Shown here: piece by piece, positions 990 through 16,494 of the stretch | How positions within the stretch are numbered: position 1 is the first letter of the stretch | How the letters are laid out: each line of letters opens with the position of its first letter | IMG/VR virus record: IMGVR_UViG_3300042305_001248 | Coordinates: 1 to 55,619 of that record | Length of the DNA stretch: 55,619 nt | Direction: 5' to 3' (one strand) | DNA from: a virus | Lineage: Duplodnaviria; Caudoviricetes | Notes under the pieces: generated by a model | Seen by the model: only the letters and a program-made list of their open reading frames with translations | What the model was told of the DNA's origin: nothing | Databases searched by the model: none | Position numbers and translations under genes: made by a program

Positions 990-1024
990 GCTCTCCTTGC
1001 CTCTCTGACGCCCTTCGGCGTCGG

Positions 1025-2914: not shown

Positions 2915-3555
2915 CACTCGCGCTCCGGAGGCAGCCGAGCGTCGGCCGCGATCGCCTCGCCGAGAGAGACGGGACCGCTCTCGCGGCTCGGAGCCGCCCT
3001 GCGTCCCGAGCGCGGGAGGACGTCGAGCTTCGCGAGCCGCGCCGCGAACTCTCGGCGCTCGACGTAGCCCTGCGGGGCCGGGACGTTGCAGCCCCACTCG
3101 TCGGACAGGAACGCGAGGACCTCGTCGCGCAGGGCCTCGACGCGAGCGTCGCCGCCGACCGCGTCGAGGATGCGCTGGTAGTCGTCCACGACCGAGAGCA
3201 GGACGAGGACGCGCACCGCTCCCTCGCTCTCGGCGAGCCACACGGCGTAGCGCCAGCTCCCGAAGCTCGACGCGAGCTGCCGGTCCTCCTCGGAGGCGCG
3301 GTTGCGCCGCGCCCAGCGGAGCGCGGAGATCAGCTCGTCGTCGCTCGCCGGGAACTCGGGCGGGCGCTCGGGGACCTCGGGCCGACACCACGATCTGTGC
3401 ATCCCGAGGCGCACCGCCTCGGCGCTCGCGAAGCGGACCATCTGCGCCTCGTCGGGCTTGAGGTCGCCGTTCATCAGCCGCTGCATGTCGCGGATCAGCG
3501 CCTGCTCACGAGCCCTTGCCGGTGCGGAGGGCTCGAAGGATCCGGTTGTATTCAC
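2911..3555 (-). CDS. Hypothetical protein in the replication module (start uncertain)
   Basis: ORF with AGGAAGG RBS; lies between the replication organiser and rusA. Confidence 0.6.
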   Translation of the reverse strand: MNTTGSFEPSAPARAREQALIRDMQRLMNGDLKPDEAQMVRFASAEAVRLGMHRSWCRPEVPERPPEFPASDDELISALRWARRNRASEEDRQLASSFGSWRYAVWLAESEGAVRVLVLLSVVDDYQRILDAVGGDARVEALRDEVLAFLSDEWGCNVPAPQGYVERREFAARLAKLDVLPRSGRRAAPSRESGPVSLGEAIAADARLPPEREW

Positions 3556-4081
3556 TTGTGTTGCCTTCCTTTAGGTGTCGTTCTGCCTGCGCTCGAAGAG
3601 CGCGCTGTCGTTCGTCGGCCTGCTCGGCAGGCGTACTCGCGGGCGTCGGTCGCGCTCCTCCAGCGAGGGCCGCGAACCGCTCGACGCGGCTGCCGGTGCG
3701 ACAGATCATTTCGAGGTCATCGTAGACCGTGCCCGCGTCGTTCTGGCCCGAGTGGAACTCCGAGCCCAGGCAGCCGTCGATCGCGGCGCGGATCTCCGCC
3801 TCCGAGTAGCCCTGCCGCAGACGCGCCAGGACGCGAGACGCACGCTCTGGAGTCAGTCGCGCCTTCGGCTTCGAGGCCCTGCGCTGCCAGTAGTCGAAGA
3901 TCCGCTGGACGACCTCGCGATGCCCCTCGACGGGAGCCTCCGCGGGCTCGGAGACGAGCGCGAGCTGCGCGCCTCCCTGGAGGCGAGCGACGAAGGCCGA
4001 GAGGTCGGCGAGGACGTCCTCTCCGCGGGCGTACCGCGCCGCGATCGTGAGCAGCTCTGCGAGGGTCTCCGAGCGGTCCAT
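3506..4081 (-). CDS. Replication-organiser-like protein (conserved phage C-terminal replisome domain)
   Basis: VQRIFDYW...LTxxR...ARLxxGYSxxEIxxAIDGC...YDDLEMICR...VERF; GGAGG RBS. Confidence 0.65.
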   Translation of the reverse strand: MDRSETLAELLTIAARYARGEDVLADLSAFVARLQGGAQLALVSEPAEAPVEGHREVVQRIFDYWQRRASKPKARLTPERASRVLARLRQGYSEAEIRAAIDGCLGSEFHSGQNDAGTVYDDLEMICRTGSRVERFAALAGGARPTPASTPAEQADERQRALRAQAERHLKEGNTSEYNRILRALRTGKGS

Positions 4082-4146
4082 GTGCCTCCGAGGGGCTCGT
4101 CTCTCCGAGCTGCCACGCCTAGCAGGACCGGCGTTCGTCGATGGGA

Positions 4147-4677
4147 TCAGAACGGGATGTCGTCGTCGTCGCGCTGCTGGCTCGTCCCGCGCTTCTGCGG
4201 CTTCGCGTCGCCCATCGCCTCGGCCTCCTGCTGGTCGAGCACCCAGGCGTCCATCGTCCGCCGCTCCGCGGGCGAGACCTGGGCGAAGCACCGCTCCAGG
4301 TCCGTGTTCGTGTAGCCGTTCGACTCGCGGACCGAGACCTTCGCCTTGAACGGCTTTCCGAGGAAGGCTCGACGCACCGCCTCGTCGCTGTTGAGGTCGA
4401 AGGGCCGATCCTGCCCGATCGCGGCGCAGTAGACCGAGAGGCGACCGGCGACACCCGCCTTCGAGACGTCGAGCGAGACGTTCGCGAAGAACGTCTGCCC
4501 GCTCCTCGGACCGTGGATCACCTCGTACTTGGCGCGGAGGTAGGCCGCGCCGCTCTTCGCCGTGCGGCGCTCGAACCAGCGCATCGCGAGGAGGTACTCG
4601 CCCGCGGGGATGCCGCCGCCGTCATCGCGGCGGTCGCCGCTTCCGTTGCCGTGCTTGCTGGGATCGAACAGGGACAT
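4147..4677 (-). CDS. Single-stranded DNA-binding protein (DUF669/gp2.5-like)
   Basis: IPAGEY...KSGxxYL OB-fold start; acidic C-terminal DDDIPF tail; follows Sak4-like gene. Confidence 0.8.
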   Translation of the reverse strand: MSLFDPSKHGNGSGDRRDDGGGIPAGEYLLAMRWFERRTAKSGAAYLRAKYEVIHGPRSGQTFFANVSLDVSKAGVAGRLSVYCAAIGQDRPFDLNSDEAVRRAFLGKPFKAKVSVRESNGYTNTDLERCFAQVSPAERRTMDAWVLDQQEAEAMGDAKPQKRGTSQQRDDDDIPF

Positions 4678-4680
4678 GGA

Positions 4681-5541
4681 TCACTTGCCTTCCTGCGCCG
4701 TCGAGGCGCTCTTCTTCGGGGTGCTGGTGGGACTGGTGGAACCGGAGTGCGCCTCGCGGACGCGACGCACCCAGGAAGCGAAGTCGGGCTCCTCCAGATC
4801 GCGGAGCGGCCGGTAGGGCTTGAGCATGTAGTGCGAGGCCGCGACGGTGCGGACCTCGTAGGCGACCTGCCGCTGCCCGTCCTCGCCGCGGTCCTCGATG
4901 CGGCGCGAGGTGATGCCCACCACGTTGACGCAGCTCGCGAGGAACGAGGGGAGCGCCCGCATCGGGAGCGCGGGCTGGACGACGCGGCTCGCCTCGTCGC
5001 CCTCGCCGACGACGCGATCGTCCTGGAGCGAGAGGAAAACCACGTGCGTCGGGACGTCGCGGAAGGCGCGGATCAGCTTCTCGCTCCGGTCGCGCAGCGC
5101 GGCCCAATGCCGCTCGGTCCAGCGTTCCAGCCCGTCCTTCGCCTTCTCGGGAGGGGCCTCGCGGCGGACCTCGTTCTCCACCAGCTCGCAGGCGTCGGTC
5201 AGCGAGTCGATCACGACCGTCTCGGGCCACGCGCCCTCGTAGACGGTCGCGCTCTCGGAGCCGCGCTTCGCGGTGATCCGGAACGGCTGCGTGCGCGGCC
5301 CGTGGAGGGCCCGCACGACGTCGCGGTAGTCCTCCAGCGTCTCCATGTAGAGCGTCGGCGGGAGCGGCACGCCGCGGCGCACGGAGGCGCTGCGGACGGT
5401 CGCGAGACCCTGCCGCTCCGAGAGGAGGATCAGCGGCTTCGGGGCGCTGACGCCGATGTCCGTCTTTCCGGTTCCGGGTGGGCCGTAGATCGCGGCCTTG
5501 AGATAGCTCTCCGAGTCCGTGTCCGAGTCGATGCGCTTCAC
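4681..5541 (-). CDS. AAA_24 / Sak4-like P-loop ssDNA-annealing ATPase
   Basis: IYGPPGTGKT Walker A, TVVIDSLT Walker B, W..L...FRDVPTHVVF. Confidence 0.85.
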   Translation of the reverse strand: MKRIDSDTDSESYLKAAIYGPPGTGKTDIGVSAPKPLILLSERQGLATVRSASVRRGVPLPPTLYMETLEDYRDVVRALHGPRTQPFRITAKRGSESATVYEGAWPETVVIDSLTDACELVENEVRREAPPEKAKDGLERWTERHWAALRDRSEKLIRAFRDVPTHVVFLSLQDDRVVGEGDEASRVVQPALPMRALPSFLASCVNVVGITSRRIEDRGEDGQRQVAYEVRTVAASHYMLKPYRPLRDLEEPDFASWVRRVREAHSGSTSPTSTPKKSASTAQEGK

Positions 5542-5557
5542 GTTGTCTCTCCTTGCT

Positions 5558-5615
5558 GGTCGGCCTCGCCGACCTTGGGCTGCGCCCTCGCCGAGTCTAC
5601 CACGACCGGCGAGGG
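5558..5615 (-). promoter_or_regulatory. Two hairpins upstream of the Sak4-like gene; an extended -10-like TGG-TAGACT overlaps the loop and 3' arm of the first
   Basis: CCCTCGCCG/CGGCGAGGG stem (5585-5615); GGTCGGC/GCCGACC stem (5558-5574) followed by AGCAAGGAGAG. Confidence 0.5.
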
Positions 5616-5625
5616 AGCGAGCCGA

Positions 5626-5868
5626 TCATCTATCGATCGAGCGCCGCCACGCCTCGGCGTAGCTGACTCGGACTGCGCGGTCGTACTGACGCGCGAGCGA
5701 GGGTCCGAGGCGCTCCGGGACGAGCCCGTGCAGCCTCCAGGCGACCTCGGCCGGGGAAAGCTCCAGGACGTCCGCGTCGGCGTCCTGGAGGGCCTCCAGG
5801 GAGCAGCGCGACCGCTCCTCGCGGCAGAGCTGCTCCCCCAGGGCTCGGGCGACGGCGAGCCTCATCAC
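5626..5868 (-). CDS. Hypothetical protein (80 aa)
   Basis: GTGA-coupled ORF. Confidence 0.6.
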   Translation of the reverse strand: MMRLAVARALGEQLCREERSRCSLEALQDADADVLELSPAEVAWRLHGLVPERLGPSLARQYDRAVRVSYAEAWRRSIDR

Positions 5869-6794
5869 TCGCCCAGGATCGCGAGCCGCAGGGCGTCGCG
5901 GGCCTGCCCGATGGACGCGATCAGCTCGTCCCGCTTCGCCCCGAGGACGTCGGCGTAGGTCTCGACCTGGGCCGCGAGCTGCTCGTACCGCTCGCGGCGG
6001 ATCCCGATCGAGGCGTCGAGCTGCGCCTGCGTCTGCGCGTCCTCCGAGCCCGCCTCGGCCCGAGTCTTCGCCGCGAAGACCTCGACCTCGCGCCGCAGCG
6101 TGTCGAGCCGCGCCGAGAACGCCGTCGTCGCCGCCCTCGCGGCCTGCGCGAGGTGCTGGTGCGAGCCGGTCACCTGCCAGACCGAGAACTCGCTCTCGCC
6201 CTGCTCGCCCACCCAGCTCGCGAGCGTCTGGAGCTGCGCGAGCTTCTCTGCGGGGACGAAGTAGACGCCGCCCGCCTCGCCGCGCAGGTTCGTCGCGCAG
6301 AGGAGCGAGTCGGTACCCTTACCGTGCATCGCCCGCGAGAGGCACGCCGAGAGGTCCTCGGTGCCCGCGTAGGTCAGGATCTCCCCATACGCCTCCGCGA
6401 CCGCGAGGAGCGTCCCGTCGAGCTGATCCTCCAGCTCCAGAGCGCCGGTAGCCTTGCCGACCGCGATCCGGACCCGCTGGTCGTAGCGCACCGTTGCCGC
6501 GGTCTCGTCCTTCGTGCGGTCCGAGACCGCGTAGGTGACGCGCTCGGGCGTCTCGGAGACCTTGTCGAAGACGATCCCCGGCTTGCCGCGCCTGACGCGC
6601 TCGCACGCCCGCGTGAGGCACGCCGCGTAGCTCGGGTCGCGGGGCACCGCGTCGCCGAGCCCCATCGACTTGAACGCGGCGCGGAGCCCGTCGCGGGCGA
6701 CGAAGACGTCGCGAAGGGACCACATCGCGAGCGCGCCGACGATGTGCTCGCCATGTCCGCGTAGGACGGTCTGGATCTCCTGAGTCGGGGTCAT
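5865..6794 (-). CDS. DUF6744/DUF3150-like protein often associated with MoxR-vWA pairs
   Basis: IVGALAMWSL N-terminus, LRGxxGGVYFVP motif, coiled-coil C-terminus with Y.DVLG; family recalled, not searched. Confidence 0.65.
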   Translation of the reverse strand: MTPTQEIQTVLRGHGEHIVGALAMWSLRDVFVARDGLRAAFKSMGLGDAVPRDPSYAACLTRACERVRRGKPGIVFDKVSETPERVTYAVSDRTKDETAATVRYDQRVRIAVGKATGALELEDQLDGTLLAVAEAYGEILTYAGTEDLSACLSRAMHGKGTDSLLCATNLRGEAGGVYFVPAEKLAQLQTLASWVGEQGESEFSVWQVTGSHQHLAQAARAATTAFSARLDTLRREVEVFAAKTRAEAGSEDAQTQAQLDASIGIRRERYEQLAAQVETYADVLGAKRDELIASIGQARDALRLAILGE

Positions 6795-6831
6795 TCTGCT
6801 CTCTCCTTGCTGCCGCCCTATCGCGGCGAAG

Positions 6832-6877
6832 AGCGCGCCGAGGTCGCGAGCCTCGGTGCCGGCTGTCCGGTCGCGCT
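6832..6877 (-). ncRNA. Putative three-way-junction cis-RNA element, copy A
   Basis: AGCGCG/CGCGCT closing stem; CCGG-ACAG-CCGG; CCGAGG-CTCGCGA-CCTCGG; homologous to 13013-13055. Confidence 0.55.
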
Positions 6878-6884
6878 GGGGGCG

Positions 6885-7409
6885 TCAGTCGGCGTCGGCG
6901 GCGTCGTCGTCGTCGGCCGCGACGGCGTCGGCCGCGACGGCCTCGCGCCACGCGGCGGCATAGGCGCGCAGAACCTCGTCGCGCCGCACCCCGTAGCGGA
7001 CGAGGTGCGCCGCTCCGATGCGCTCCGCGACCTCCTCAATCGCGGCGTAGTCCCAGCCGCTCCCGTCGCCCGCCGAGGGGTCGTCCAGCACCTCGGGCGT
7101 GCAGTCGCCCGATGTGCGGTCGGCCGCGACCATGCGCTCGGCGATCCAGCGGATCGCGTGCTCGTCGGCCTCGTCGGCCTCGCCCTCGTCCTCGCCCTCG
7201 TCCTCGCCGTCGCCCTCGGCGACCGGCTCGACGATCAGGTCGCCGCGAAGCGCCTCGACGGTGGAGCCGAGCGCCTCGGCCGCGTCCCGCGAGGAGCGAT
7301 AGCCCGCGGCGCGGTCCATCGCCTCGACGGCGTCGTCAGGAGTCTCGCCCCAATAGAGTCCGAGGCTCAGGCCCGAGGTGCGGTTCGCGATGCGGTAATA
7401 GATGGTCAT
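6885..7409 (-). CDS. Highly acidic early protein
   Basis: First gene after the promoter at 7459-7486; strong RBS; D/E-rich. Confidence 0.75.
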   Translation of the reverse strand: MTIYYRIANRTSGLSLGLYWGETPDDAVEAMDRAAGYRSSRDAAEALGSTVEALRGDLIVEPVAEGDGEDEGEDEGEADEADEHAIRWIAERMVAADRTSGDCTPEVLDDPSAGDGSGWDYAAIEEVAERIGAAHLVRYGVRRDEVLRAYAAAWREAVAADAVAADDDDAADAD

Positions 7410-7458
7410 CTGCGTCTCTCCTTGCTGCTGCCGCCCTGTGCGGCGCGTCGATGGGATT

Positions 7459-7486
7459 ATCTTAGGACGCTTTTAAGCGTTGTCCA
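7459..7486 (-). promoter_or_regulatory. Early sigma70-like promoter with palindromic operator
   Basis: TGGACA-ACGCT TAAA AGCGT CC-TAAGAT (16-nt spacer); AT-rich upstream. Confidence 0.75.
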
Positions 7487-7523
7487 GTCTTTCGACGAAG
7501 TATTTTACAACCTCGCGAGATTG

Positions 7524-7742
7524 CTACGGAATCCGCCGCTCTTTTCTCTCCTCCGCCGCCTTTCGACGCTCGATCTCAGCCCGATACCGACGGAGGGCTC
7601 GACGGGCCCGCGCCAGCTCGTAGCGGCGCATCGGAGCGCCCTCGGGCTCCCTCCTCCGCTCGCAGGGGTCCGAGGCTCCGGGCCAGTCGCGACCCATCCC
7701 GCAGGCGCTACAGCGCCCCGAGGAGGCCCATCGGTGGCTCAC
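7524..7742 (-). CDS. Small CxxC-containing basic protein
   Basis: GTGA coupling; RCSACG...PC. Confidence 0.55.
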   Translation of the reverse strand: MSHRWASSGRCSACGMGRDWPGASDPCERRREPEGAPMRRYELARARRALRRYRAEIERRKAAEERKERRIP

Positions 7743-8479
7743 GGCTCCTCGGGCCAGGGCAGGGCGAGCGTGCCGCGCCTCGGGGCCGCAGGCAGGTCGC
7801 GCAGCCGCTCGCGCGCCAGCTCGACGTGTGTCTCGTCCAGGTCGCCGCCGATCCATCGGCGGCCGAGGAGCTTTGCCGCCAGGAGCGTGGTCCCGGCGCC
7901 GCAGCACGGATCGCATACCAGATCGCCGGGGCGGGTGTAGTCCTCGACGAGACGCTCCATGAGCCACAGTGGCTTTCCGCCGATGACCCCAGAACGCCCC
8001 TGCTTGTTGCCTCGCCACCCGTACTCCGGCGGGACCACGTACGCTCCGGGCAGCGCCCCCCATTGCTGGGCGGCACGCGTGCGCGGCCGAGCCGCCACGG
8101 CCCAGACCGACCACTGCGACGGGCCATCGCCAGACAGCCGAACGCGTGATCCTGGCTCCACGCACGCGAGCGGGGCAAAGGTGTATCTCTCGGCCGCGGC
8201 TAACGATGCCTCCCACGCCTTCGCAAGCACATGGTCAGTTAGCGACACGATCCACCCGCGAGTTAGCGGGGCCCAGGTGTAAACGAACTCCGCCACATCG
8301 GCCGCAGACCAGGACGCGTATACCAACGAGCCGCGCCCAACTTCCTCCATGTCGCGATACGCCGAGTGCGTGCGCTCGCTGTACGGCGCATCGACGATCA
8401 GCGTGTCCACATGCCCCACCGTCTCGCGGACGAGCTGGGCGAGGTCGCGCCAATGCAGGTGACCGACCGTCCCGATCAC
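7739..8479 (-). CDS. Amino (N6-A/N4-C) DNA methyltransferase, beta-class motif order
   Basis: IVDAPY (motif IV variant) precedes KPLWLMERLV..YTxPGDLVCDPCCGAGTT (motifs X/I). Confidence 0.85.
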   Translation of the reverse strand: MIGTVGHLHWRDLAQLVRETVGHVDTLIVDAPYSERTHSAYRDMEEVGRGSLVYASWSAADVAEFVYTWAPLTRGWIVSLTDHVLAKAWEASLAAAERYTFAPLACVEPGSRVRLSGDGPSQWSVWAVAARPRTRAAQQWGALPGAYVVPPEYGWRGNKQGRSGVIGGKPLWLMERLVEDYTRPGDLVCDPCCGAGTTLLAAKLLGRRWIGGDLDETHVELARERLRDLPAAPRRGTLALPWPEEP

Positions 8480-8862
8480 TCGTCGCCCTCGGCGAAAAGC
8501 GAGAGCTGGTGGATGTTCTCCATCGCCTCGCGGAGCCGCGTCTCGGCCGCGCTGACGTCCTCCTTCGCGCTCTTGATCGCGTCGGCGCGAGCCTGCTTCG
8601 CCTCCTCCAGCGTCTGCCACGCATCCTCGATCCGGTGGAGCTTCGCCAGGGCTCGGGCAGGCTCGCCGACCGGGATCCCCTCCTCCATCGAGGCGCGGAG
8701 GCCTGCGAGCGCGACCGCCATGAATCCGGCGTGCTCCTTTCGCAGCTCCTGGAGCTGCTCCTTCGTCGCCTCCCACGCGAGGAAGCGGCGGCTGATCTGC
8801 TGCTCGCGCTCGGTCGGGAGCGCCTCCTGTCCGGTCATCGTCGTCGGTGCCTTCTTCGTCAT
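8476..8862 (-). CDS. Coiled-coil protein with a C-terminal QLSLF beta-clamp-binding-like motif
   Basis: GAGGAGA RBS; ends ...HQLSLFAEGDE. Confidence 0.7.
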   Translation of the reverse strand: MTKKAPTTMTGQEALPTEREQQISRRFLAWEATKEQLQELRKEHAGFMAVALAGLRASMEEGIPVGEPARALAKLHRIEDAWQTLEEAKQARADAIKSAKEDVSAAETRLREAMENIHQLSLFAEGDE

Positions 8863-8872
8863 TGTCGTCTCC

Positions 8873-10057
8873 TCAGAATGGGGGCTCGGGTGCGGTCATC
8901 GCCGCGGTGATCTCCTCGTGCGTCTCGACCGCGACGCGGAACGACTCGCGCAGCTCGGGCGCGGACGGATCGAGGCAGACGCTCCGGTAGACGCAGGGCA
9001 TCGACCACGCGCTCGTGCAATTGCCGGGGTTCCTGGTCACGAGCCCGCCGTCGAGACGCGCCTCCCGCATCCGAGAGCCGTCGAGGAACGCCTCCCTCCG
9101 CCAGCGATCCAGCTCGGCATCGCTGCGGTAGAACTCCCGCCGCGAGAGGAACGTGTCGCCCTTCGCGATGAGCCTCGCGAGGAGGTCAGCCTGGGCCTCC
9201 GTGCGCTGGTAGCCTCGCTCCTCCTGCTGCTCCAGAGCGCGGGCGTAGATGCTCGGGAGCGTGTCGATCGCCGAGACCGAGACCATGCCCCGCTGCGTGA
9301 TCTCCGGGGTCCGCGGAGCCCGCTTGCGGAGGACGTTGTACGCGATCCTCCCGGTCGGGACCTCGCCGCGCTCGATACGCGCCCCGAGGTCGCGCAGGCT
9401 CGGAGGCACCGAGAGAAGCGAGAGGATCCGCCCCTGCCGGATGTACTCGCGCACGGCCCATAGATAGCCCGCCATCTGCGGGTCCATCTCGACGCGCCGA
9501 TCGATGGTCGAGACCTCCGCGCTCGTTGTCTTGTGATCGACCACGACGAGGTCCTGCGCCTCGGTGTCGTAGGCGATCAGGTCGATCACCCCGGCAAGCT
9601 GGAGGTGCGCGATCCGCCGCCCCATCGAGTCGATCAGCGGCGTCTGGAACGGGACCTCGACCCCGAGCGGGACGAGCGTCCGGAGGTCGCGCTCGTGCGT
9701 CTGCCAGTAGTGGCGGATCATCCAGAGCGCGGTCTCGAACGCCTTCGCTCCCTCCTCCTCGGACTGCTCCGAGGACGGCTCCCACGCCTCGCGGTAGCGC
9801 CTCGTCGCGCCCTCCGCGGCGTCGAGGACCTCGGGCAGCGCGGCCTCGCTGGCTCGCATCCGAGCCGCAGCGATCGCGAGATAGCCCGCGGCGAGACCAG
9901 CGTGGATCGCCGACCCGAACGAGAGCGGCGGAGCGACTGTCTTCGGGCGCAGACGCTCGACGTAAGCGAACGACCACTTCTGGCCGCAGTCGCGGAACGT
10001 CTGCACCTCCGAGTTGCTGATCACGGTGAGCTGCGGCTTCGAGCGGCGCTGCTTCAC
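8873..10057 (-). CDS. PD-(D/E)XK RecB/Cas4-like exonuclease
   Basis: SNSE..TFRDC..KW..Y, FGSAIH, GVEVPF, GVIDL, VVDHKT, Q...Y, C-terminal C..C..C. Confidence 0.88.
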   Translation of the reverse strand: MKQRRSKPQLTVISNSEVQTFRDCGQKWSFAYVERLRPKTVAPPLSFGSAIHAGLAAGYLAIAAARMRASEAALPEVLDAAEGATRRYREAWEPSSEQSEEEGAKAFETALWMIRHYWQTHERDLRTLVPLGVEVPFQTPLIDSMGRRIAHLQLAGVIDLIAYDTEAQDLVVVDHKTTSAEVSTIDRRVEMDPQMAGYLWAVREYIRQGRILSLLSVPPSLRDLGARIERGEVPTGRIAYNVLRKRAPRTPEITQRGMVSVSAIDTLPSIYARALEQQEERGYQRTEAQADLLARLIAKGDTFLSRREFYRSDAELDRWRREAFLDGSRMREARLDGGLVTRNPGNCTSAWSMPCVYRSVCLDPSAPELRESFRVAVETHEEITAAMTAPEPPF

Positions 10058-10278
10058 GACGGCACCTCCGCGAGAGCCGCCGCGACGAGCCCGCCGAGGG
10101 TCTCGGCGCGGTACGTCTGGAGCGAGAGCCTGGGGAGCCCGTGTGCGGACCGCCGCTCGACGGTCGCCTCCGCGCACCACTCGCCCCGGTGGAGCCAGAC
10201 CCGGATCTGCGCTGGACCCCTCTCGCGGAGCTGGGCCTCCAGCTCGCGGACCGTCATGTCGTCGTATCGCTTCGTCAT
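10054..10278 (-). CDS. Hypothetical protein (74 aa)
   Basis: ATG behind hairpin and GAGGA RBS. Confidence 0.65.
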   Translation of the reverse strand: MTKRYDDMTVRELEAQLRERGPAQIRVWLHRGEWCAEATVERRSAHGLPRLSLQTYRAETLGGLVAAALAEVPS

Positions 10279-10307
10279 CGTCTCGTCCTCTCTGCGGCCT
10301 TCGCCGC

Positions 10308-11777
10308 TCACATCGAAAACACGCCGTCGAGCTTCGCGCTCGCGCCGTCCAGGTCTCCCGGCGCGAGCGCGATCGCCTGCGTCGCTCGGTCGCTGATCCA
10401 GGCCGGGACCGCGCTCGCGATCCCGACCGCGAAGAGCGCCGCGCCGTGCGCTCGGAGCCCGTCGAGCTGCCGGAGCTGCCCGTCGCGGTCGTGATCGACG
10501 CCGTCCGTGATCAGGACGACGTCGGCCCGAGCGAAGGCCCGCTGCTCCGCCGCGTCGCGGAGGAGCCGGTTCGCCTCGCCGAGCGCGCTCGCGATCGAGG
10601 TCCCGCCCCCGGAGAAGGACGAGACGCAGGCGAGGAGCGCGTCGAGGCCGACCGCCTTCGGCTGCGCGAAGCGATCGACGCTGGTCACCGCGCCGTCGAA
10701 ATGCACGACCGAGAAGGCGCGGTTCTGACGCGCCGCGACCTCCATCATCGCGAGCGCGACCGCCTTCGCCCACTCGTCGCGAGCGCCGCGCATCGAGCCG
10801 CTCTCGTCGAGGCAGAGGACGATCGGGCCCTCGGCGCGATGGTCCTGCCCGCGGAGCTGGTACTGGAGCGCCGACCGCTCCAGGAGGCGACGGTAGAGGA
10901 GCGCCTCCAGGTCCTCGTCGGCGAGGAGGACCGACTCGCTCGGGAGGAGCCGCCCGAGGTCGTCGCCAGCCTCGACGTCGCACAGCTCTTCGCGACCGTG
11001 CGCGGCCTTCGTGTTCTGCTTCTGGATCGCCTGCGCTCGGAGGCGACCGGCGAGCTTCGCGATCCTCCGCAGCCGCTCGTCGGAGCGGAGCCGCTGGACG
11101 ACCTCCGAGCGCGGACCCTGGATCCTCCCCGGCGAGCCCGCCTCGGAGCCGCAGCCGAGACCCGTCGCCGCCTCCTCCAGCTCCCCGAGCTGCGCGTCCG
11201 CCTTGGACGCAGCCGTCCGGAGCGCCCTGCGGACGCGGGAGACCGCCTCGCGGGCCCGCTGCGCTGCGGCCTCGTCCGCCGCCTCCGCGGCCTCTGCGCG
11301 GGCCTCCAGGCCGGGGAGACGGCCCGAGCGCGGGTTCGCCTCGCGGACCGACTCCGCGGCCTCTCGGGCCTGCTGCGCGTCCTCCTCGGGAGGCTGGACG
11401 ACCGGAGCGAGCGCGTCGAGCGCCTGCGCCGCCGCGAGCCCCGAGGCCCAAGCGTCGCCCTCGGCGCGAGCCTGGAGCGCCCGCCACTCGGGGAGGCTCT
11501 CCGCCTGCGAGAGCAGATCGCGGACCCACGCCGCGCCCTTCGGCTCGCCCTCGACGGGCTCGCAGCCGAGCCCGTAGAGCGACCCGTAGACCTCGCGGGC
11601 GAGCGAGCCCCAGGGCCCGCCGTGCGCCCCGAGGACGCGACCGAACTCGCCCTCCGCCTTCGCCTCGTCCACGGCGAGGGAGCGGACCCACCCGCCGACC
11701 GCCAGCGCAGCGTCCGCGCCCGTCTCTAGCGAGACCATCGCGGCCTCGCGGTTCGCCTGTCGCCTGTCCTGCTCCAT
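10308..11777 (-). CDS. von Willebrand factor A domain protein (ViaA/CoxE-like MoxR partner)
   Basis: GDDLGRLLPSE, GPIVLCLDESGSM (MIDAS), GGGT, DVVLITDG. Confidence 0.92.
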   Translation of the reverse strand: MEQDRRQANREAAMVSLETGADAALAVGGWVRSLAVDEAKAEGEFGRVLGAHGGPWGSLAREVYGSLYGLGCEPVEGEPKGAAWVRDLLSQAESLPEWRALQARAEGDAWASGLAAAQALDALAPVVQPPEEDAQQAREAAESVREANPRSGRLPGLEARAEAAEAADEAAAQRAREAVSRVRRALRTAASKADAQLGELEEAATGLGCGSEAGSPGRIQGPRSEVVQRLRSDERLRRIAKLAGRLRAQAIQKQNTKAAHGREELCDVEAGDDLGRLLPSESVLLADEDLEALLYRRLLERSALQYQLRGQDHRAEGPIVLCLDESGSMRGARDEWAKAVALAMMEVAARQNRAFSVVHFDGAVTSVDRFAQPKAVGLDALLACVSSFSGGGTSIASALGEANRLLRDAAEQRAFARADVVLITDGVDHDRDGQLRQLDGLRAHGAALFAVGIASAVPAWISDRATQAIALAPGDLDGASAKLDGVFSM

Positions 11778-11815
11778 CGCTCTCTCCTCGCTGTCAGCCC
11801 TGCGCCGACGAGTGC

Positions 11816-11843
11816 ATCCTAGCACGCTTCCGAGCGTCGTCTA
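11816..11843 (-). promoter_or_regulatory. Early sigma70-like promoter with palindromic operator
   Basis: TAGACG-ACGCT CGGA AGCGT GC-TAGGAT (16-nt spacer, TG extension). Confidence 0.75.
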
Positions 11844-11850
11844 CTTTTCG

Positions 11851-12978
11851 TCAGAGGTCCAGCATCCGAGCGACCGCTTCGCGCAGCTCCGCGGAGCGGG
11901 CCTCCAGCTCGCCGACGAGGGCCCCGATCTTCCTCGCGCTCGCGGGGCTCGCCTGCGCCTGGAGGGCGCGGAGCTTCGCGACGCCCTTCCCCAGCTCGCG
12001 TCGGGTCGAGGGAGCCTTCGCCTCGAAGGCGGGGTCCGTCGGGGGCGGGAGCTTCGCGATGACCTCAACGAGCCCGTCGAAGGCCCGCTGCGCGTCGGCC
12101 AGCTCTGCGGAGGCGAAGCGGGCGCAGGCAGCGGCGACCTTCGGGGCCTGCTCGGGCACGTTCCAGAGCACGCTCGCGAGGACCGCGAGGTGCTCGGGAG
12201 AGACCTCCGAGAGACCGTCGAGCCACGCAGCGGCGCGGAGGAGCGCCGCGCACTTCCTCCAGCGTCGATCCGAGGCGACGATGCCCTCGCGGGCCAGCTC
12301 GGAGCGGAGCTGCCAGAGCGCCGAGACGACCGCCTTCGGGAGCGCGACCTGGGCGACCTCGGCCCGAGCCGCCTCCCACTCGTCGAGCGTGATCGTCGCC
12401 GTCGAGCGGAGGCTCGTCGTGCCCGTGATGATCGCCTCGAACGAGTCGGGCGCGTGGACGTACTCGACCCAATGCCGCAGGAGGAAGCGGTCCCAAAGCG
12501 CTCCCAGCTCGGCCGACTCGGGCAGCTCGTTCGACGCGCCGACGCAAGTCAGGAGCGGGACCGCCTGCGGCGTCGGACCGTTGTGGAACGTCCGCTCGTT
12601 GATCACGGCGAGAAGCGCGTTGAGGACCGCGCTGTTCGCCTTGAAAATCTCGTCCAAGAACGCGATGTGCGCCTCCGGGAGCTTGCCCGTCGTGACGCGG
12701 GTGAAGCGGTCGGCCTTGAGGGCCGAGAGCGAGACCGGCCCGAACAGCTCCTCGGGCGTCGAGAACTTCGAGAGGAGCCACTCGAAGTGACTCGCGCCCT
12801 GGATCGCGCCCGCGAACGCTCGGGCAAGCTCGGACTTCGCGGTGCCCGGAGGGCCGAGGAGGAGGATGTGCTCGCGGGCGAGCGCCGCGATCAGGAGGGA
12901 GTCGATCTCGCGGTCGCGCTCGACGAACGCGGACTGGAGCGAGGAGCGGATAGACTGGATCTTCGAGAGCGTCGTCAT
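11851..12978 (-). CDS. MoxR-family AAA+ ATPase (RavA-like)
   Basis: HILLLGPPGTAKS, STPEELFGP, FLDEIFKANSAVLNALL..INER, GASNELP, LWDRF, SDRRW. Confidence 0.93.
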   Translation of the reverse strand: MTTLSKIQSIRSSLQSAFVERDREIDSLLIAALAREHILLLGPPGTAKSELARAFAGAIQGASHFEWLLSKFSTPEELFGPVSLSALKADRFTRVTTGKLPEAHIAFLDEIFKANSAVLNALLAVINERTFHNGPTPQAVPLLTCVGASNELPESAELGALWDRFLLRHWVEYVHAPDSFEAIITGTTSLRSTATITLDEWEAARAEVAQVALPKAVVSALWQLRSELAREGIVASDRRWRKCAALLRAAAWLDGLSEVSPEHLAVLASVLWNVPEQAPKVAAACARFASAELADAQRAFDGLVEVIAKLPPPTDPAFEAKAPSTRRELGKGVAKLRALQAQASPASARKIGALVGELEARSAELREAVARMLDL

Positions 12979-13012
12979 GGTGCCTTCCCTTGCTGCCGCT
13001 TCGTGCGGCGAT

Positions 13013-13055
13013 GCGCCCTGCCGGTAGCGAGCCGGTCCCGATCCTCTCGGGGCGC
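13013..13055 (-). ncRNA. Putative three-way-junction cis-RNA element, copy B
   Basis: GCGCC/GGCGC closing stem; CCGA-GAGGA-TCGG; CCGG-CTCGCTA-CCGG. Confidence 0.55.
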
Positions 13056-13063
13056 TGCGGGGC

Positions 13064-13339
13064 TCAGGCAGCGAGCCCGCGAGCGAACCTCTTTGCCGCC
13101 GCGAGAGCAGCCCTCGGCGAGCCCGCCGCGGGGAAGGACGCGAGCACCTCGCCCTCGCTGCCGCAGACGTCGTAGCCGCCGACGATGTAGCGGCGCGACA
13201 TGCCCGACCAGAGCGTCTCGTGGATGACCTGGATCTCGCCGATCTCCTCGCCGTCGCGCTGCACCGAGATAGAGCCGCCGTTGCCGGGGCCCGCGCTGTC
13301 GATCCGTCCGAAGGTCACCTTGTTCTGCGTCGGGGTCAT
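13064..13339 (-). CDS. First early gene, hypothetical (91 aa)
   Basis: Directly after the promoter at 13382-13409; AAGGAGAG RBS. Confidence 0.75.
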   Translation of the reverse strand: MTPTQNKVTFGRIDSAGPGNGGSISVQRDGEEIGEIQVIHETLWSGMSRRYIVGGYDVCGSEGEVLASFPAAGSPRAALAAAKRFARGLAA

Positions 13340-13381
13340 CGTGCTCTCCTTGCTGCCGCCCTGCGCGGCGTCGATGGGGAG

Positions 13382-13409
13382 ACTCTACCACGCTTCGGAG
13401 CGTCGTCTA
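13382..13409 (-). promoter_or_regulatory. Main early promoter with palindromic operator
   Basis: TAGACG-ACGCT CCGA AGCGT GG-TAGAGT (16-nt spacer, TG extension); A7 tract upstream. Confidence 0.78.
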
Positions 13410-13442
13410 GTCTTTTTTTCGTCTACCCGAATTTCGTCCCGC

Positions 13443-13471
13443 TGGACTCCGTCCGGGCTCCGCGTTACAGT
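13443..13471 (+). promoter_or_regulatory. Divergent rightward promoter for the HNH gene
   Basis: TGGACT-N17-TACAGT. Confidence 0.55.
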
Positions 13472-13533
13472 CAGAGGGTCAGACGTCCAGGTCTGATGGG
13501 CGACGGCGTGCCGAGCGACGGGCAGACGGGAGA

Positions 13534-13627
13534 CCGGAGCCCAGAGCGAGGTCCCGGAGTCCCCGACCCACCCCAAGACGGACCGGGGGGTGGGGTTGGG
13601 GCTCCTGCGGCCTCACTCTGGGCTCCG
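13534..13627 (+). repeat. Long imperfect inverted repeat in the HNH leader
   Basis: CCGGAGCCCAGAG/CTCTGGGCTCCGG outer arms; GGAGTCCCCGACCCACCCC/GGGGTGGGGTTGGGGCTCC inner arms. Confidence 0.8.
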
Positions 13628-13651
13628 GGAGGTAGAGAAGAGGCAGAGAAG

Positions 13652-14170
13652 ATGATCCGATCCTTGGAAGATCTCAGGTCGAGGACCACCCCTCTAGACG
13701 AGTGCTGGATCTGGTCCGGCGGACTCACCCAAAAAGGGTACGGCTTCTTCATCCGAGGAAGGAAGAAGCTCCGCGTCCACCGTCTAGCCCTGGAGCTGAC
13801 GGGGGTCCGCGTCACCTCCGAGGATCTCGTGCTGCACTCGTGCGATAGGCCAGCGTGCTGCAACCCCGCCCACCTGCGCGTGGGGACGCACGAGGACAAC
13901 GTCCGCGACGCGATGGATAGAAACCGCGTGGCGTGCGGCACTCGAAAGAAAAACGCGAAGCTCACCGACGAGCGAGTTCGCGTAGCGAGAGCCGACTACT
14001 CGCACGGTGCCACGGTCTCATCCCTGGCAAAAAGGTTCTCGGTGGACTACCGAACCATGAAAGACGTCGTCCTGGGACGCGCCTGGAAACACGTGAACGC
14101 CGAAGGGCTCAGCCCCTCGCGGGGTGAGCCCTTCTTGGCGGCTGCCGTCGATTCCAGCGACAGTAGCTAG
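13652..14170 (+). CDS. HNH homing-type endonuclease with C-terminal DNA-binding helix region
   Basis: CWIWSG...GYG...VHRL...VLHSCDRPACCNPAHL..GT..DN..D; NAKLT...LAKRF. Confidence 0.9.
   Translation: MIRSLEDLRSRTTPLDECWIWSGGLTQKGYGFFIRGRKKLRVHRLALELTGVRVTSEDLVLHSCDRPACCNPAHLRVGTHEDNVRDAMDRNRVACGTRKKNAKLTDERVRVARADYSHGATVSSLAKRFSVDYRTMKDVVLGRAWKHVNAEGLSPSRGEPFLAAAVDSSDSS
14102..14134. terminator. Strong hairpin, probable terminator (possibly bidirectional)
   Basis: GAAGGGCTCA-G-CCCC-TCGC-GGGG-TGAGCCCTTC. Confidence 0.55.
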
Positions 14171-14174
14171 ACAT

Positions 14175-14204
14175 GATCCTGCACTACCAGCGATCGCTGG
14201 TCAA
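14175..14204 (-). promoter_or_regulatory. Leftward promoter overlapped by a perfect 16-bp palindrome
   Basis: TTGACC-N17-CAGGAT; ACCAGCGATCGCTGGT at 14186-14201. Confidence 0.5.
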
Positions 14205-14271
14205 GCAAGCCTCCCTCCCCTCTGGGCGAAGGGAAGAAACAGGCTACGAGGTAGCCAGCGAGGACGAGATA

Positions 14272-14849
14272 ATGATCGCAGCTCTCTACGTTGAGCGAGG
14301 AGGGGCCTACTACGACCTCCCCGAGATCGACCCCTGGGACGAGGCACGAGACGCTAGACGCTACGAGGGGCCGCATCCGGTCATCGCGCACCCTCCGTGC
14401 TCGACATGGTGCCGCCTCGCCGCGGTGAACGAGGCGCGATGGGGGCACCCAATCGGGAGCGACGGAGGCTGTTTCGAGGCGGCACTCTCGTCGGTGCGCC
14501 GCTGGGGCGGCGTCCTGGAGCATCCCGCGTACACCTACGCCTGGGGAGCCTTCGGCCTGCCGCGACCCGTGCGCGACGGCTGGCAGCAGCTCCTCGGCGA
14601 GCGAGCCTGGGTCACCGAGGTCTCCCAAAGCGCCTACGGACACGACGCGAGGAAGCGGACGTGGCTCCTCTACGTCGGAGAGCGGCCTCCGGAGTTGCTC
14701 GACTGGAGCGACCCGGAGGGCACCGCCTGGGTCGGGAACGACGGCTCTGCCGGCGCGAAGCGGCAGCTATCGAAGGCCGAAGCGAAGCGGACCCCCCCCC
14801 CTTCCGCGACCTCCTGGTCCGTCTCGCGAAGGGCGCTAGGCCCCGCTAG
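14272..14849 (+). CDS. Minimal C5-cytosine methyltransferase-like protein, frameshifted at a C10 tract (14792-14801)
   Basis: AHPPC (motif IV), VLEHP (VI), Q..YGH.ARKRTW (VIII); the FRDLL end lies in another frame after the poly-C. Confidence 0.7.
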
Positions 14850-15204
14850 GACGGATCGAGGCGACCGCGTCCCTCCAGCGGTCCAGCTCCCGCTGCATCG
14901 AGGACATGCGCTCGTCGCAGTCCCGGCCCTGAGCCTCTAGCTCCCCTCGGAGCGACTCGACCCGCTGGAGGCAGTCGCGCTCGCGCTCGTCGGAGGCCGA
15001 GTAGAGCCGCTTGGCTTCGTCCAGGTCGCGTCGGGCGTGCGCGTAGGCGTCGAGGACCGTCTGGCTCCTATGAGCCTCCTGCTCGGCCGCTATACGCGCC
15101 GCGTCGGCCCTGCTCTTCGCCGTGGTGCGGATCGCGAAGCCAATCGCTCCTCCGAGCCCTCCGGAGGCGATGGTCGCGAGGATCAGGTCTACGGCTGCGC
15201 CCAT
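14836..15204 (-). CDS. Membrane-anchored coiled-coil protein (holin or i-spanin candidate)
   Basis: N-terminal hydrophobic helix plus long coiled coil; follows the lysin genes. Confidence 0.55.
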   Translation of the reverse strand: MGAAVDLILATIASGGLGGAIGFAIRTTAKSRADAARIAAEQEAHRSQTVLDAYAHARRDLDEAKRLYSASDERERDCLQRVESLRGELEAQGRDCDERMSSMQRELDRWRDAVASIRPSGA

Positions 15205-15211
15205 AGGGGTC

Positions 15212-15838
15212 TCACTCCGGGGTGACGTCGGCGTTCTCGACGTCGGCGAGAGGTTCAAGCTGGCTCGGTCGGGCGTAGAAGTCGTTCGACGTCCCACCGC
15301 AGTCTACGTCGAGGAGGCCGAGGCGCGTCGCTCGGGCGCGGTCCATGGTCCCGCCCCAGTCGTGGACCGGACCGTCGCAGAGGCCCCACTCGTCTACGTC
15401 GTCCAGGCGCCAGGAGACGACCTCGCGGGCGCGTTCGAGGACGGCGAGCCAGCGGGCGCGGTAGGAGACCCACGGAGGATGCGGCTCGACGCGAACGAGC
15501 CCGCCTCGGCCTGGGCGCGTGATCACGCGAGGCCACGAGTACGGCTCGCCGCCGTCCGCTCGGAGTCCTGCGACCCAGGGGCGCAGGCGCGAGGGCTCCA
15601 TGCCGGTCGCTCTCGGCGAGTAGCTCCGGGCGAAGGTCTCGTAGCGCATCGCGTGGCGCTCCGCTCCTCGGAGGAGGACCTCGTGGATCGCGTAGCCGTC
15701 GCCGGTATCCCAGCACTCCCAACCGGCCTCGGAGACGCAGATGCGGGCGAGGAGGAGCGCGTCGGTCGCGAGGTCGGCGCGAGCGGAGGAGGCCCAGGCG
15801 AGGAGCAGGGCGAGGAGGAGGGGAGCGAGTCGGGTCAT
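15212..15838 (-). CDS. Secreted cell-wall-hydrolase-like protein (SleB/Hydrolase_2-like)
   Basis: Signal peptide ending ...ARA-D; LLLARICVSEAG catalytic-Glu-like motif. Confidence 0.5.
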   Translation of the reverse strand: MTRLAPLLLALLLAWASSARADLATDALLLARICVSEAGWECWDTGDGYAIHEVLLRGAERHAMRYETFARSYSPRATGMEPSRLRPWVAGLRADGGEPYSWPRVITRPGRGGLVRVEPHPPWVSYRARWLAVLERAREVVSWRLDDVDEWGLCDGPVHDWGGTMDRARATRLGLLDVDCGGTSNDFYARPSQLEPLADVENADVTPE

Positions 15839-16494
15839 AGCTGGACCCGATCGTAGCCCGCCGAGAGTAGGTGGCGCACGAGCTGGGTCCCCGCGTCCAC
15901 CTTCGTCGAGGAAGCGTTGAGGTGCTCGACGACGCCGCGGAAAGCCTTGAGCTTCGCGTCGGGGATTCGCGTCTCGACGGGACCGGAGAGGGTCGTCGGG
16001 ACTGCGCGAGGCATCCCGAGCGCGGCCTGGACCGCGTCGCAGAGCCAGAGCCACGAGTCGAGCTGCGCCTGCGTGAACGCGAGCTGCCGGATCATGCGTC
16101 CGTGGACGCGGTGCGAGACCTCTTCGCGCTCGCGGCCCTGGTCGGGCGGCAGGCCGCGGTTGACGACCTCTACGCCCCACGAGAAGTCGTTGACGGCTCC
16201 AGCGTGGAGGCACGTGACGGCGACGGGATCGGCGTACTGCCAGATCGCGCCGTCGTATCCGATCGTGAAGTGAACCGATAGGTTGCGCGAGACGAGGACG
16301 TCGTAGACGCGCTTTCCGTCGTCCGCGGCGCTCTTGATCCCGGCCTCGCCCCCGGTCCAATGGCCGACGCCGAGCGTGCATGGCTGACGTCTCACGCGGC
16401 AGCCCTTGTATGGCGGCGCGAAGGCGAGGCTGGTCGCGGTCCAGTCGAACACGCGCTCGGTACCTCGGATCGGCTTCCCGGCGACGATCAGCAT
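15835..16494 (-). CDS. Endolysin, N-acetylmuramoyl-L-alanine amidase (Amidase_2)
   Basis: HWTGG, SVHFxIxxDGxIxQ, HAGxxN..SxGVE, FTxAQ, GVVEH...KxD. Confidence 0.88.
   Translation of the reverse strand: MLIVAGKPIRGTERVFDWTATSLAFAPPYKGCRVRRQPCTLGVGHWTGGEAGIKSAADDGKRVYDVLVSRNLSVHFTIGYDGAIWQYADPVAVTCLHAGAVNDFSWGVEVVNRGLPPDQGREREEVSHRVHGRMIRQLAFTQAQLDSWLWLCDAVQAALGMPRAVPTTLSGPVETRIPDAKLKAFRGVVEHLNASSTKVDAGTQLVRHLLSAGYDRVQL

Follow-up and report, generated by a model that had tools for sequence, protein, structure and literature searches.

Two three-way junctions between early genes

The window, that is the whole stretch of DNA analysed here (IMGVR_UViG_3300042305_001248, 55,619 bp, about 70% GC), is a complete IMG/VR virus record with direct terminal repeats. 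Its early and DNA-metabolism region lies on the minus strand, from about 13,500 to 4,000, and encodes a bpMoxR ATPase, a VWA protein, a PD-(D/E)XK nuclease, a DNA methylase, a DUF6744 protein, an AAA_24 ATPase and a DUF669 protein. Two intergenic spaces of this region contain a three-way junction (3WJ), made of a closing helix P1 and of two hairpins, P2 and P3; the two elements, copy A and copy B, are the subject of this work. Scores are given below for three covariance models, of which R1 describes the 3WJ together with the hairpin that follows it, and R3 the 3WJ only, from six copies with copy B left out; the third is called R2.

6832..6877, minus strand: 3WJ copy A, recognised from its sequence, with 65.1 bits by R3 (E 1.1e-11) and compensatory changes in close homologues
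6877-6872 with 6837-6832, minus strand: P1 of copy A, AGCGCG/CGCGCT
6870-6867 with 6862-6859, minus strand: P2 of copy A, CCGG-acag-CCGG, with loop ACAG
6856-6851 with 6843-6838, minus strand: P3 of copy A, CCGAGG-ctcgcga-CCTCGG, with loop CTCGCGA
6878..6887, minus strand: TGA (6887-6885) of a 174-amino-acid (aa) open reading frame (ORF, 6885-7409) and the 7-nt C-rich spacer before P1 of copy A
13013..13055, minus strand: 3WJ copy B, a divergent and weak member, recognised by its loop motif and context
13056..13066, minus strand: TGA (13066-13064) of a 91-aa ORF (13064-13339) and the 8-nt spacer before P1 of copy B

In copy A all 16 pairs are Watson-Crick, and no base is left unpaired between P3 and the 3' strand of P1. 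Copy B consists of P1 GCGCC/GGCGC, P2 CCGA-gagga-TCGG and P3 CCGG-ctcgcta-CCGG, again with Watson-Crick pairs only (13 of 13), and has three unpaired bases (CAG) before the 3' strand of P1; A13056 remains unpaired outside P1. A preliminary description of this DNA had reported both elements, and both are present on the minus strand with exactly the sequences and positions that it gave. It had also placed their starts a few nucleotides past a stop codon, which is right for both, with the correction that the spacer of copy B measures 8 nt and not 7. Downstream of each copy we found, as described there, a GCCGC-N5/6-GCGGC hairpin and then AGCAAGG.

Homologues of copy A

The family counts 18 annotated 3WJs in 9 phage, prophage or metagenome sequences, which come from the clade of the window phage, from Microbacterium prophages, from a region of a Rhodoglobus metagenome-assembled genome (MAG) and from two unrelated IMG/VR contigs. 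The closest relatives are a 6.2-kb IMG/VR contig (L054/L055) and a 7.9-kb metagenome contig (L056), whose DUF6744 protein is 79-80% identical to that of the window. Two 3WJ copies are found in each of L055 and L056. The first occupies the orthologous site, between a small gene and DUF6744, and has P1 GCGGGC/GCCCGC and P2 CCGGG/CCCGG; the second stands right after the DUF6744 stop codon, has P3 GAGGGG/CCCCTC and is followed, about 60 nt downstream, by a promoter of the same type as those described below. Copy A turned out to combine P1 and P2 of the second L055 copy (L055-2) with P3 of the first (L055-1). The loop of the first L056 copy (L056-1) reads CTCATGA.

More distant members were retrieved by two pattern searches. 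In the first, only P2, the junction segment J2 and the P3 loop were fixed, and IMG/VR and 185,579 species genomes were covered; it gave 198 distinct matches, with full pairing of P1 and of the outer part of P3 in six family copies only, namely copy A, the four copies of L055 and L056, and one in a 52.7-kb provirus (L193/G006). A viral contig (L197/G007), with a single A-A mismatch in the fold, reaches 43.3 bits. Over the gene adjoining the element, G006 is 99% identical to a prophage of Microbacterium sp. K24, and in three more Microbacterium prophages (L276, L277 and L278) a 3WJ with largely different stems lies beside a neighbour gene that is 60-66% identical. The second pattern, in which P2 and TCACG were fixed, produced at least 120 matches, mostly chance ones in coding sequence, and led to the Rhodoglobus MAG region (L305) and to another IMG/VR contig (L410). 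By means of R3 and inspection, four copies were located within 8 kb of L305 and three within less than 2 kb of L410. The alignments used are those made with Infernal, because three alignments made with MAFFT (A1, A2 and A7) were not structurally consistent.

Other collections yielded little. Among 151 Microbacterium genomes, four had matches at E up to 0.01, and three of these (L280-L282) are coding or non-3WJ sequences; none of 45 loci with a MoxR gene as neighbour contains a 3WJ, and the cultured-phage collection gave no DNA or protein match. Over five related virus records, R1 returned two weak matches only (13.8 and 14.8 bits). This model had missed a true copy in G006 when genomes were searched, so that its negative results in these genome searches carry no weight.

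The stems vary and remain paired

In the Infernal alignment of six copies, 98% of the cells pair, as compared to 82.8% in column shuffles, and eight pairs are changed on both sides, which occurred in 0 of 500 shuffles. When the partner strand was slid by 1-3 columns, pairing went down to 26-52%. The hand annotation of all 18 copies gives a similar picture: of 278 cells, 272 are Watson-Crick and 5 are G-U pairs, with a single mismatch and no A-C. This pairing is maintained across 15 distinct sequences of P1, 7 of P2 and 9 of P3; when the 3' strands were re-dealt among copies (1,118 derangements), a mean of only 57.8% of the cells paired, and never more than 67.7%. The elements measure 43-51 nt, with 2-5 unpaired bases at the junction. 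With respect to the stems, the P3 loop is much more constant, since it fits N-U-C-R-Y-K-A in 15 of the 18 copies, and J2 is CA in most of them.

Stems that change and still pair, together with a loop that is kept, indicate that the fold around copy A is a selected structure. The covariation that the preliminary description had read from copies A and B is borne out for the family of copy A by the compensatory changes of its homologues; the comparison of A with B alone, on which it had been based, involves two sequences, one of which is the weakest member. A palindromic loop suited to kissing interactions was considered and discarded as a rule, given that TCGCGA and TCATGA are palindromic and TCACGA, TCGTGA and TCGCTA are not. 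We also observed that in several copies the spacer between stop codon and P1 reads C(A/T)CGACC (L305 2344-2350, 3078-3084 and 5148-5154; L410 about 2744-2752), and that those L305 and L410 elements repeat the same letters (TCACGACC) in the 3' strand and the loop of P3. This recurrence could represent a duplicated recognition motif.

The element is placed behind stop codons

All 18 copies lie between co-directional genes in the sense orientation. In 13 of the 14 copies checked, P1 starts 6-10 nt past the upstream stop codon, the exception being L197 with 41 nt; this count leaves out the three L410 copies and the fourth of L305, for which no ORF end was verified. From what is known of ribosome footprints, an element at such a distance would lie barely outside the stretch that a ribosome covers when it terminates. 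The letters flanking the stop codon look like a part of the repeat, as they read TAG-C(A/T)CGACC in L305 and C-TGA in 9 of 10 TGA cases. In most copies a second hairpin and a ribosome-binding site (RBS) come 3-30 nt further downstream, and in the place of these L055-2 and the second L056 copy (L056-2) have a promoter. The sense orientation, the five G-U pairs in the absence of A-C, and the fixed distance from the stop codon argue for selection on the transcript. Fold, conservation and placement are in this family matters of observation.

The genes on the two sides of the element are unrelated from locus to locus. Downstream are found DUF6744, bpMoxR, a helix-turn-helix (HTH) protein and ORFans, and the upstream genes are likewise unrelated; the small flanking proteins have no homology to each other. 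At E 1e-5, the window phage has no protein in common with G006 or with G007, both of which carry the element. A read-through fusion of the flanking ORFs was excluded because the stop-to-start distance is in frame at two of four loci only (93 nt at copy A and 99 nt at L055-1, as compared to 88 nt at copy B and 100 nt at L056-1, which are out of frame). A switch that would sequester the Shine-Dalgarno (SD) sequence was also dismissed; pairing of the 3' strand of P1 with the SD region occurs in the fold of copy A only. Contigs from RNA libraries, at 80-95% likeness, lie on parts of 5944-13468 and do not show transcription of the element.

The standing of copy B

Copy B owes its support to the loop motif, to where it lies and to the succession of its parts, and not to a model score. 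With R3 it obtained 13.2 bits (E 0.84) and ranked 13th of 68 matches in the window, and R2 did not list it at E up to 5. R1 gave 24 bits (E 0.0072), and a site that has only the downstream hairpin (site D, see below) already reaches 22.6 bits, so the hairpin can supply most of this score. Copy B may thus be a chance look-alike, a GC-rich intergenic fold with a CTCGCTA loop that happens to stand beside a genuinely repeated hairpin. Each strand has about 0.5 geometries of this kind per kb, and P3 of copy B is just 4 bp long and followed by three unpaired bases before the 3' strand of P1. On the other hand, a 4-bp P3 and an unpaired base after P3 are also found in clear members (L276 and the four L305 copies), and the parts follow each other as at copy A: stop codon, 7-8 nt, 3WJ, hairpin, SD. 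The combination of 3WJ and loop motif, in a descriptor that was written after A and B had been seen, fits only these two sites in the whole genome (111 kb, both strands), with shuffles giving a mean of 0.4 matches for the loop NTCNNNA and none in 20 for YTCRYKA; the exact 11-mer GGCTCGCKACC is likewise found at A and B only. On balance we consider the look-alike explanation doubtful, though it has to be taken seriously.

A leader hairpin shared by promoters and three-way junctions

The hairpin downstream of the two elements is a repeat in its own right. The sites at which it was found in the window, and the promoter-like sites associated with it, are the following.

6803..6827, minus strand: leader hairpin GCCGC-gatagg-GCGGC, AGC and AAGGAG RBS, before the DUF6744 gene (ATG 6794)
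12983..13009, minus strand: leader hairpin GCCGC-acgaa-GCGGC, AGC and AAGGGAAGG, before the bpMoxR ATPase gene (ATG 12978)
7418..7444, minus strand: the same leader hairpin and RBS, directly downstream of promoter C, with no 3WJ
13346..13369, minus strand: the same leader hairpin and RBS, downstream of promoter D
11783..11809, minus strand: variant leader hairpin GTCGGC-gcagg-GCTGAC (one G-U) and GAGGAG, downstream of promoter E
7459..7486, minus strand: promoter-like site C, TGGACA, 16-nt spacer, TAAGAT, called by the promoter scan
13382..13409, minus strand: promoter-like site D, TAGACG, 16-nt spacer, TAGAGT, read by eye
11816..11843, minus strand: promoter-like site E, TAGACG, 16-nt spacer, TAGGAT, read by eye

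A GC-rich hairpin of 5-6 bp, AGC and AAGGAG therefore precede five early start codons. The GCCGC/GCGGC form is present in four exact copies, as compared to 0.16 expected, and the fifth copy has covaried; covariation of the leader stem is seen also in L054, L056 and L009. The three sigma-70-like sites C, D and E have an A-tract upstream of the -35 box, and the palindrome ACGCT-N4-AGCGT in their spacers (3 matches, 0.12 expected). A single repressor or switch protein probably recognises them as its operator. L054 has such a promoter too, at about 1752-1779.

At three of the five places (C, D and E) the leader hairpin is preceded by a sigma-70-like promoter, and at A and B by the 3WJ. Twice in the window, the parts succeed each other as promoter, leader hairpin, small gene, 3WJ, leader hairpin and next gene. 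When leader D was aligned to cassette A, exactly the 44 positions of the 3WJ were missing. Since the same leader follows either a promoter or a 3WJ, the two appear interchangeable ahead of a common 5' leader. One contig from a DNA run (X12, depth 15.9) joins 6822 to 13005, inside the loops of two leader hairpins, and skips 6,182 bp; at the joint, which this one contig shows, 7 letters are shared and the shorter side counts 36. It could reflect a deletion or rearrangement by recombination between cassettes, or a relative with another gene order. The Microbacterium prophages have a start-proximal repeat of their own, GGGAG-N-TTGCACC-ATG (L193 4700-4760, where it occurs twice in tandem, L277 3131-3200 and L278 1797-1860), which is distinct from that of the window.

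The phage and its surroundings

Among the virion genes of the window are those for a contractile-tail sheath, baseplate J, tape measure, major head protein and large terminase. Gene order is conserved in the closest full-length relative (G001), whose major capsid protein is 75% identical. The region is present in metagenome runs from lakes and fresh water, five of which contain at least half of the sampled words. The bpMoxR AAA ATPase is followed by a VWA-domain protein (10308-12978, minus strand), and the same pair in the same order is found in G001; a MoxR ATPase paired with a VWA protein is better known from cellular ternary systems. The only plus-strand block near the early region is an oppositely oriented pair of ORFs (13652-14170 and 14173-14940) immediately upstream of promoter D, one HNH / His-Me finger endonuclease-like and the other matching phrog_12600 (E 3.3e-52). 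In the structural region, a single tRNA-Arg with anticodon GCG (41996-42075, minus strand), which is the sole ARAGORN call in the window, overlaps a long ORF (41338-42423) taken as a Mu F-like head protein.

Upstream of copy A, the 174-aa ORF ends in a low-complexity GAC/GCC repeat (6890-6940, minus strand) encoding an Asp/Ala-rich tail. It draws very high depth from unrelated metagenome contigs (3057 in run X6, bin 6828-7084), and for this reason read-based analysis beside copy A is spoiled.

Comparison with known RNA classes

At gathering thresholds, Rfam 15 gave no match in the whole window. With relaxed limits, E up to 10 for the region of copy A and up to 5 for L054 600-1800, only microRNA and small nucleolar RNA noise appeared, with no match to the tRNA clan. 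The novelty that the preliminary description had made dependent on an Rfam scan thus holds, and no description of the element was found in Rfam 15 or in the full-text literature searched, in which subscription papers are thinly covered.

The preliminary description had seen a mini-tRNA-like topology and an anticodon-like loop, a likeness that the tests did not support. ARAGORN in three modes (-t, -mt and -mtx) called no gene in any of 11 elements, and the positions of the supposed anticodon vary freely. The 7-nt P3 loop begins with Y-U-C-R, like positions 54-57 of a T-loop, whose consensus is U-U-C-R-A-N-N with A58; the fifth position is C or U in all 15 loops that fit N-U-C-R-Y-K-A, and never A58. 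In the 11 copies that were read past their 3' side, P1 is not followed by CCA. Mimicry of a tRNA, in which P1 stacked on P3 would act as an acceptor/T-arm minihelix, either for cutting of the operon by RNase P/Z or as a decoy against tRNA-targeting defences, seems to us very improbable. In its favour, 12 of the 18 copies leave no base unpaired between P3 and the 3' strand of P1, and P1 and P3 add up to 12 bp in 10 of 18, with splits including 6+6, 7+5 and 8+4. The P2 loops always have a G near the 3' end, to which a role like that of G19 might speculatively be given, and R2 has a weak match (16.2 bits) to the T-arm/acceptor part of an apparently real tRNA in L049. As the other copies stack 11 (4 copies), 10 (3 copies) or 9 bp (1 copy), no single length holds throughout; a strict 12-bp ruler, which had fitted 9 of 11 copies at first, was abandoned when L305 and L410 were added.

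A candidate role in punctuating early operons

We propose, with a probability of about 40%, that the element is a portable intercistronic punctuation cassette. Host machinery would recognise it, and its effect would be to define the 3' end of the upstream mRNA or to shield it. The cassette would run in the order stop codon, spacer of about 7 nt, 3WJ, short linker, second hairpin, RBS and start codon. On a polycistronic early transcript, the GC-rich 3WJ would form just outside the ribosome that terminates on the upstream gene and would set or protect the 3' end of the mRNA of that gene. It could do so by terminating or attenuating transcription with no U-tract, by stopping 3' exonucleases or by directing a host endonuclease to the site. 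The downstream cistron would in turn start with a 5' hairpin leader, as on the phage transcripts that begin at a promoter. That the action takes place on RNA, that it consists in the formation or cleavage of a 3' end and that a host factor reads the element is what we infer from comparing the sequences. As unrelated phages carry the element and have no common protein, the reader of the P3 loop should be a factor of the host. The location of L055-2 and L056-2, after the DUF6744 stop codon and before a promoter, suggests that the element can close a transcription unit, and the multi-copy arrays of L305 and L410 resemble punctuation between genes. In GC-rich Streptomyces, many transcript 3' ends lie at GC-rich stem-loops without U-tracts, according to the portion of the source at hand (PMC8269248). 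Of the candidate roles listed in the preliminary description, processing or 3'-end formation fits this context best, and antitermination is weakened by the multi-copy arrays.

Several observations weigh against this proposal. No U-tract follows P1 (the next bases are, for example, CTTCGC, ATCGCC, ATTCCC, CTCGAA or ACGGGA), and a terminator scan of 1-16000 gave six sites, none of them at A or B. Classical RNase III substrates offer some two turns of coaxially stacked double helix, interrupted by an internal loop, and the 9-12 bp of stacked P1 and P3 fall short of this size. A block to exonucleases alone would leave the conserved loop and the branched fold unexplained. The folding energy is ordinary, as three folds gave z values of -0.20, +0.85 and -0.30 with respect to dinucleotide shuffles, and the bare 3WJ geometry matched 37 and 28 times on the two strands, as compared to a mean of 27.3 in 20 shuffles; in DNA of 70% GC, geometry alone is meaningless. 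Copy B fails under R3, and the divergent copies score only 16-25 bits with it. The helices of these copies were annotated by hand from minimum-free-energy folds and chosen to pair. Because P2, J2 and loop (L193 and L197) or P2 and TCACG (L305 and L410) had been fixed in the searches, conservation there is partly circular; the pairing of P1 and of the outer part of P3 is free of this circularity. None of the contig pieces listed, from four runs of which one is RNA, lies on either 3WJ, and the contigs give no RNA ends. Finally, G001 has no copy of the element, which is therefore dispensable.

Alternative explanations

A variant of the proposal, which we regard as unlikely, is that the 3WJ is a minihelix-like structure cut at the borders of P1 by a host ribonuclease, RNase P/Z-like or other, and that it doubles as a portable gene junction. 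If this were true, early operon RNA would be diced into cistrons with a 3WJ at the 3' side and a hairpin at the 5' side, and a cassette of about 90 nt with its own stop codon and RBS would let unrelated Microbacteriaceae phages swap genes. Processive antitermination of the kind known for HK022 put, an RNA that suppresses termination by binding the zinc-binding domain of the RNA polymerase beta' subunit, is one rival; by it the nascent 3WJ would make host RNA polymerase resistant to pausing and termination over the early operon. It agrees with the presence of two copies in the window, one per early transcription unit, each after a short first gene and about 300-580 nt downstream of a sigma-70-like promoter. 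L055-1 is about 280 nt from its promoter, and putR about 270 nt from PR. According to the excerpt consulted, put too consists of adjacent stem-loops and needs no phage protein (PMC9378689), which fits the absence of a phage protein common to the carriers. The four copies of L305 and the three of L410, after successive genes, would be needless for a processive modifier, and the second copies of L055 and L056 stand at the end of a unit, just before a promoter. Moreover, put is a V-shaped RNA of about 70 nt with two long stems and without closure, as compared to 43-51 nt with a closing P1. In the operons that follow the two 3WJs, the terminator scan lists nothing terminator-like on the gene strand, and its minus-strand matches lie only upstream of promoter D. 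Antitermination of this type thus appears improbable.

The element might otherwise be an operator. A factor acting in trans, either a protein of host or phage or a small ligand, would bind it and, by way of the adjacent hairpin and RBS, would govern how well the downstream gene is translated or how stable its RNA is. A loop kept in 15 of 18 copies, together with the CA of J2, while the stems vary is a typical recognition surface, and in most copies 3-30 nt separate the element from the hairpin and SD that precede the next gene. L055-2 and L056-2 precede a promoter and not the RBS of a gene, neither the downstream nor the upstream genes are related between loci, an alternative pairing with the SD is not conserved, and 2-5 unpaired bases at the junction are in our judgement too few for a ligand pocket, all of which makes an operator distinctly unlikely. 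A feature acting on DNA, with the RNA fold as a secondary matter, is as the sole explanation hardly probable; it would be either a boundary cassette for recombination and gene shuffling or a miniature mobile insertion. Several observations are in its favour: carriers have no proteins in common, syntenic G001 is without the element, copy A mixes helices of the two L055 copies, leader D equals cassette A minus the 3WJ, and homologous promoter and leader cassettes stand ahead of non-homologous genes. The unit also seems to bring its own stop codon, with TAG-CACGACC in L305, where one copy has no long ORF ending there, and C-TGA in 9 of 10 TGA cases; and the contig joint between 6822 and 13005 falls inside two leader hairpins. 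A precedent is offered by cassettes of a promoter and a stem-loop (PeSL) that mediate shuffling, as the part of the report available to us puts it (PMC2839356). A recombination or insertion sequence should, however, keep its sequence, and P1 exists in 15 versions, all paired; the strict sense orientation, the five G-U pairs without A-C and the fixed stop distance favour selection on the transcript; neither a transposase nor a target duplication was seen; and the joint is one contig, with 36 letters on the shorter side. Shuffling of DNA in the manner of PeSL may well occur in addition to the punctuation that we propose, and it leaves the covariation, the strand bias and the stop spacing unexplained.

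Relation to known systems

The early intergenic RNase III sites of phage T7, at which the host enzyme cuts polycistronic RNA and 3' hairpins stabilise the resulting units, are similar to the present cassettes in being related stem-loop modules repeated between early genes, after stop codons and before the next RBS. A T7 site is a single long hairpin with an internal bubble, whereas here the fold is branched, 43-51 nt long, with a stack of 9-12 bp and a conserved 7-nt loop; cleavage is known for T7, and the 3WJ has been seen as sequence only, in phages of high-GC Actinomycetota. The mycobacterial interspersed repetitive units (MIRU) are also sense-oriented intercistronic repeats, of about 46-100 bp, that touch the flanking stop and start codons. 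They are tandem direct repeats, conserved in sequence and chromosomal, and not known as covarying 3WJs, whereas our element is phage-borne.

According to the text used (PMC2839356), the small PeSL cassettes repeated in T4-type phages unite a stem-loop with a sigma-70-like promoter, stand beside non-essential early genes and may be drivers of modular shuffling. The window similarly repeats cassettes of promoter, hairpin and 3WJ before unrelated genes. As far as that text goes, the stem-loops of PeSL keep their sequence and terminate transcription effectively; in the 3WJ the stems covary, no U-tract follows and most copies come without a promoter. HK022 put resembles it as a cis-acting pair of adjacent nascent stem-loops, with two related copies in two early operons; in the sections of PMC9378689 on which we rely, put is about 70 nt long, unclosed and present once per operon, and the 3WJ is smaller, closed by P1 and repeated several times in the arrays of some relatives. 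The 'I-shaped'/HS-U-lack ends of Streptomyces, as outlined in part of PMC8269248, share with it the GC-rich structure without U-tract and the origin from GC-rich Actinomycetota; they are generic hairpins at mapped 3' ends, while the 3WJ is branched, has a conserved loop and is known from sequence.

Among actinophages, the nearest precedent is offered by the start-associated sequences (SAS) and extended start-associated sequences (ESAS) of Cluster K mycobacteriophages, which the leader repeat of the window recalls. In the extract used here (PMC3203893), these are repeats in one orientation, in the non-structural half of the genome, tied to translation starts and with function given as unknown; about half of the SAS repeats have an inverted repeat with a variable spacer just upstream. 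SAS is there a 13-bp sequence, GGGATAGGAGCCC, located at the start codon; inverted repeats of 17 bp may lie upstream of it. The start-proximal repeat of the window is GCGGCAGCAAGGAGAG after a hairpin with a 5-bp stem, unlike SAS, and the 17-bp inverted-repeat consensus is not seen here either, a comparison for which no pattern search with the SAS 13-mer was made. ESAS is a single inverted repeat, as compared to a three-way junction anchored to the preceding stop codon.

The element can be classed among the structured intercistronic regulatory cassettes of phage early operons, a known kind, and is itself undescribed in the sources searched. Structured elements between cistrons decide how much of each early protein a phage makes. 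To our knowledge, almost nothing is known of how transcripts end and are processed in phages of high-GC Actinobacteria, because classical terminators are scarce in them. Since a cultured Microbacterium strain has a strong prophage copy, bench tests are feasible. The 3WJ offers a testable handle on the ways in which high-GC phages end, cut or stabilise their mRNAs, and on the travel of regulatory cassettes between genomes; even if its function should be the ordinary protection of 3' ends, it would still be a new RNA motif for the annotation of actinophage genomes.

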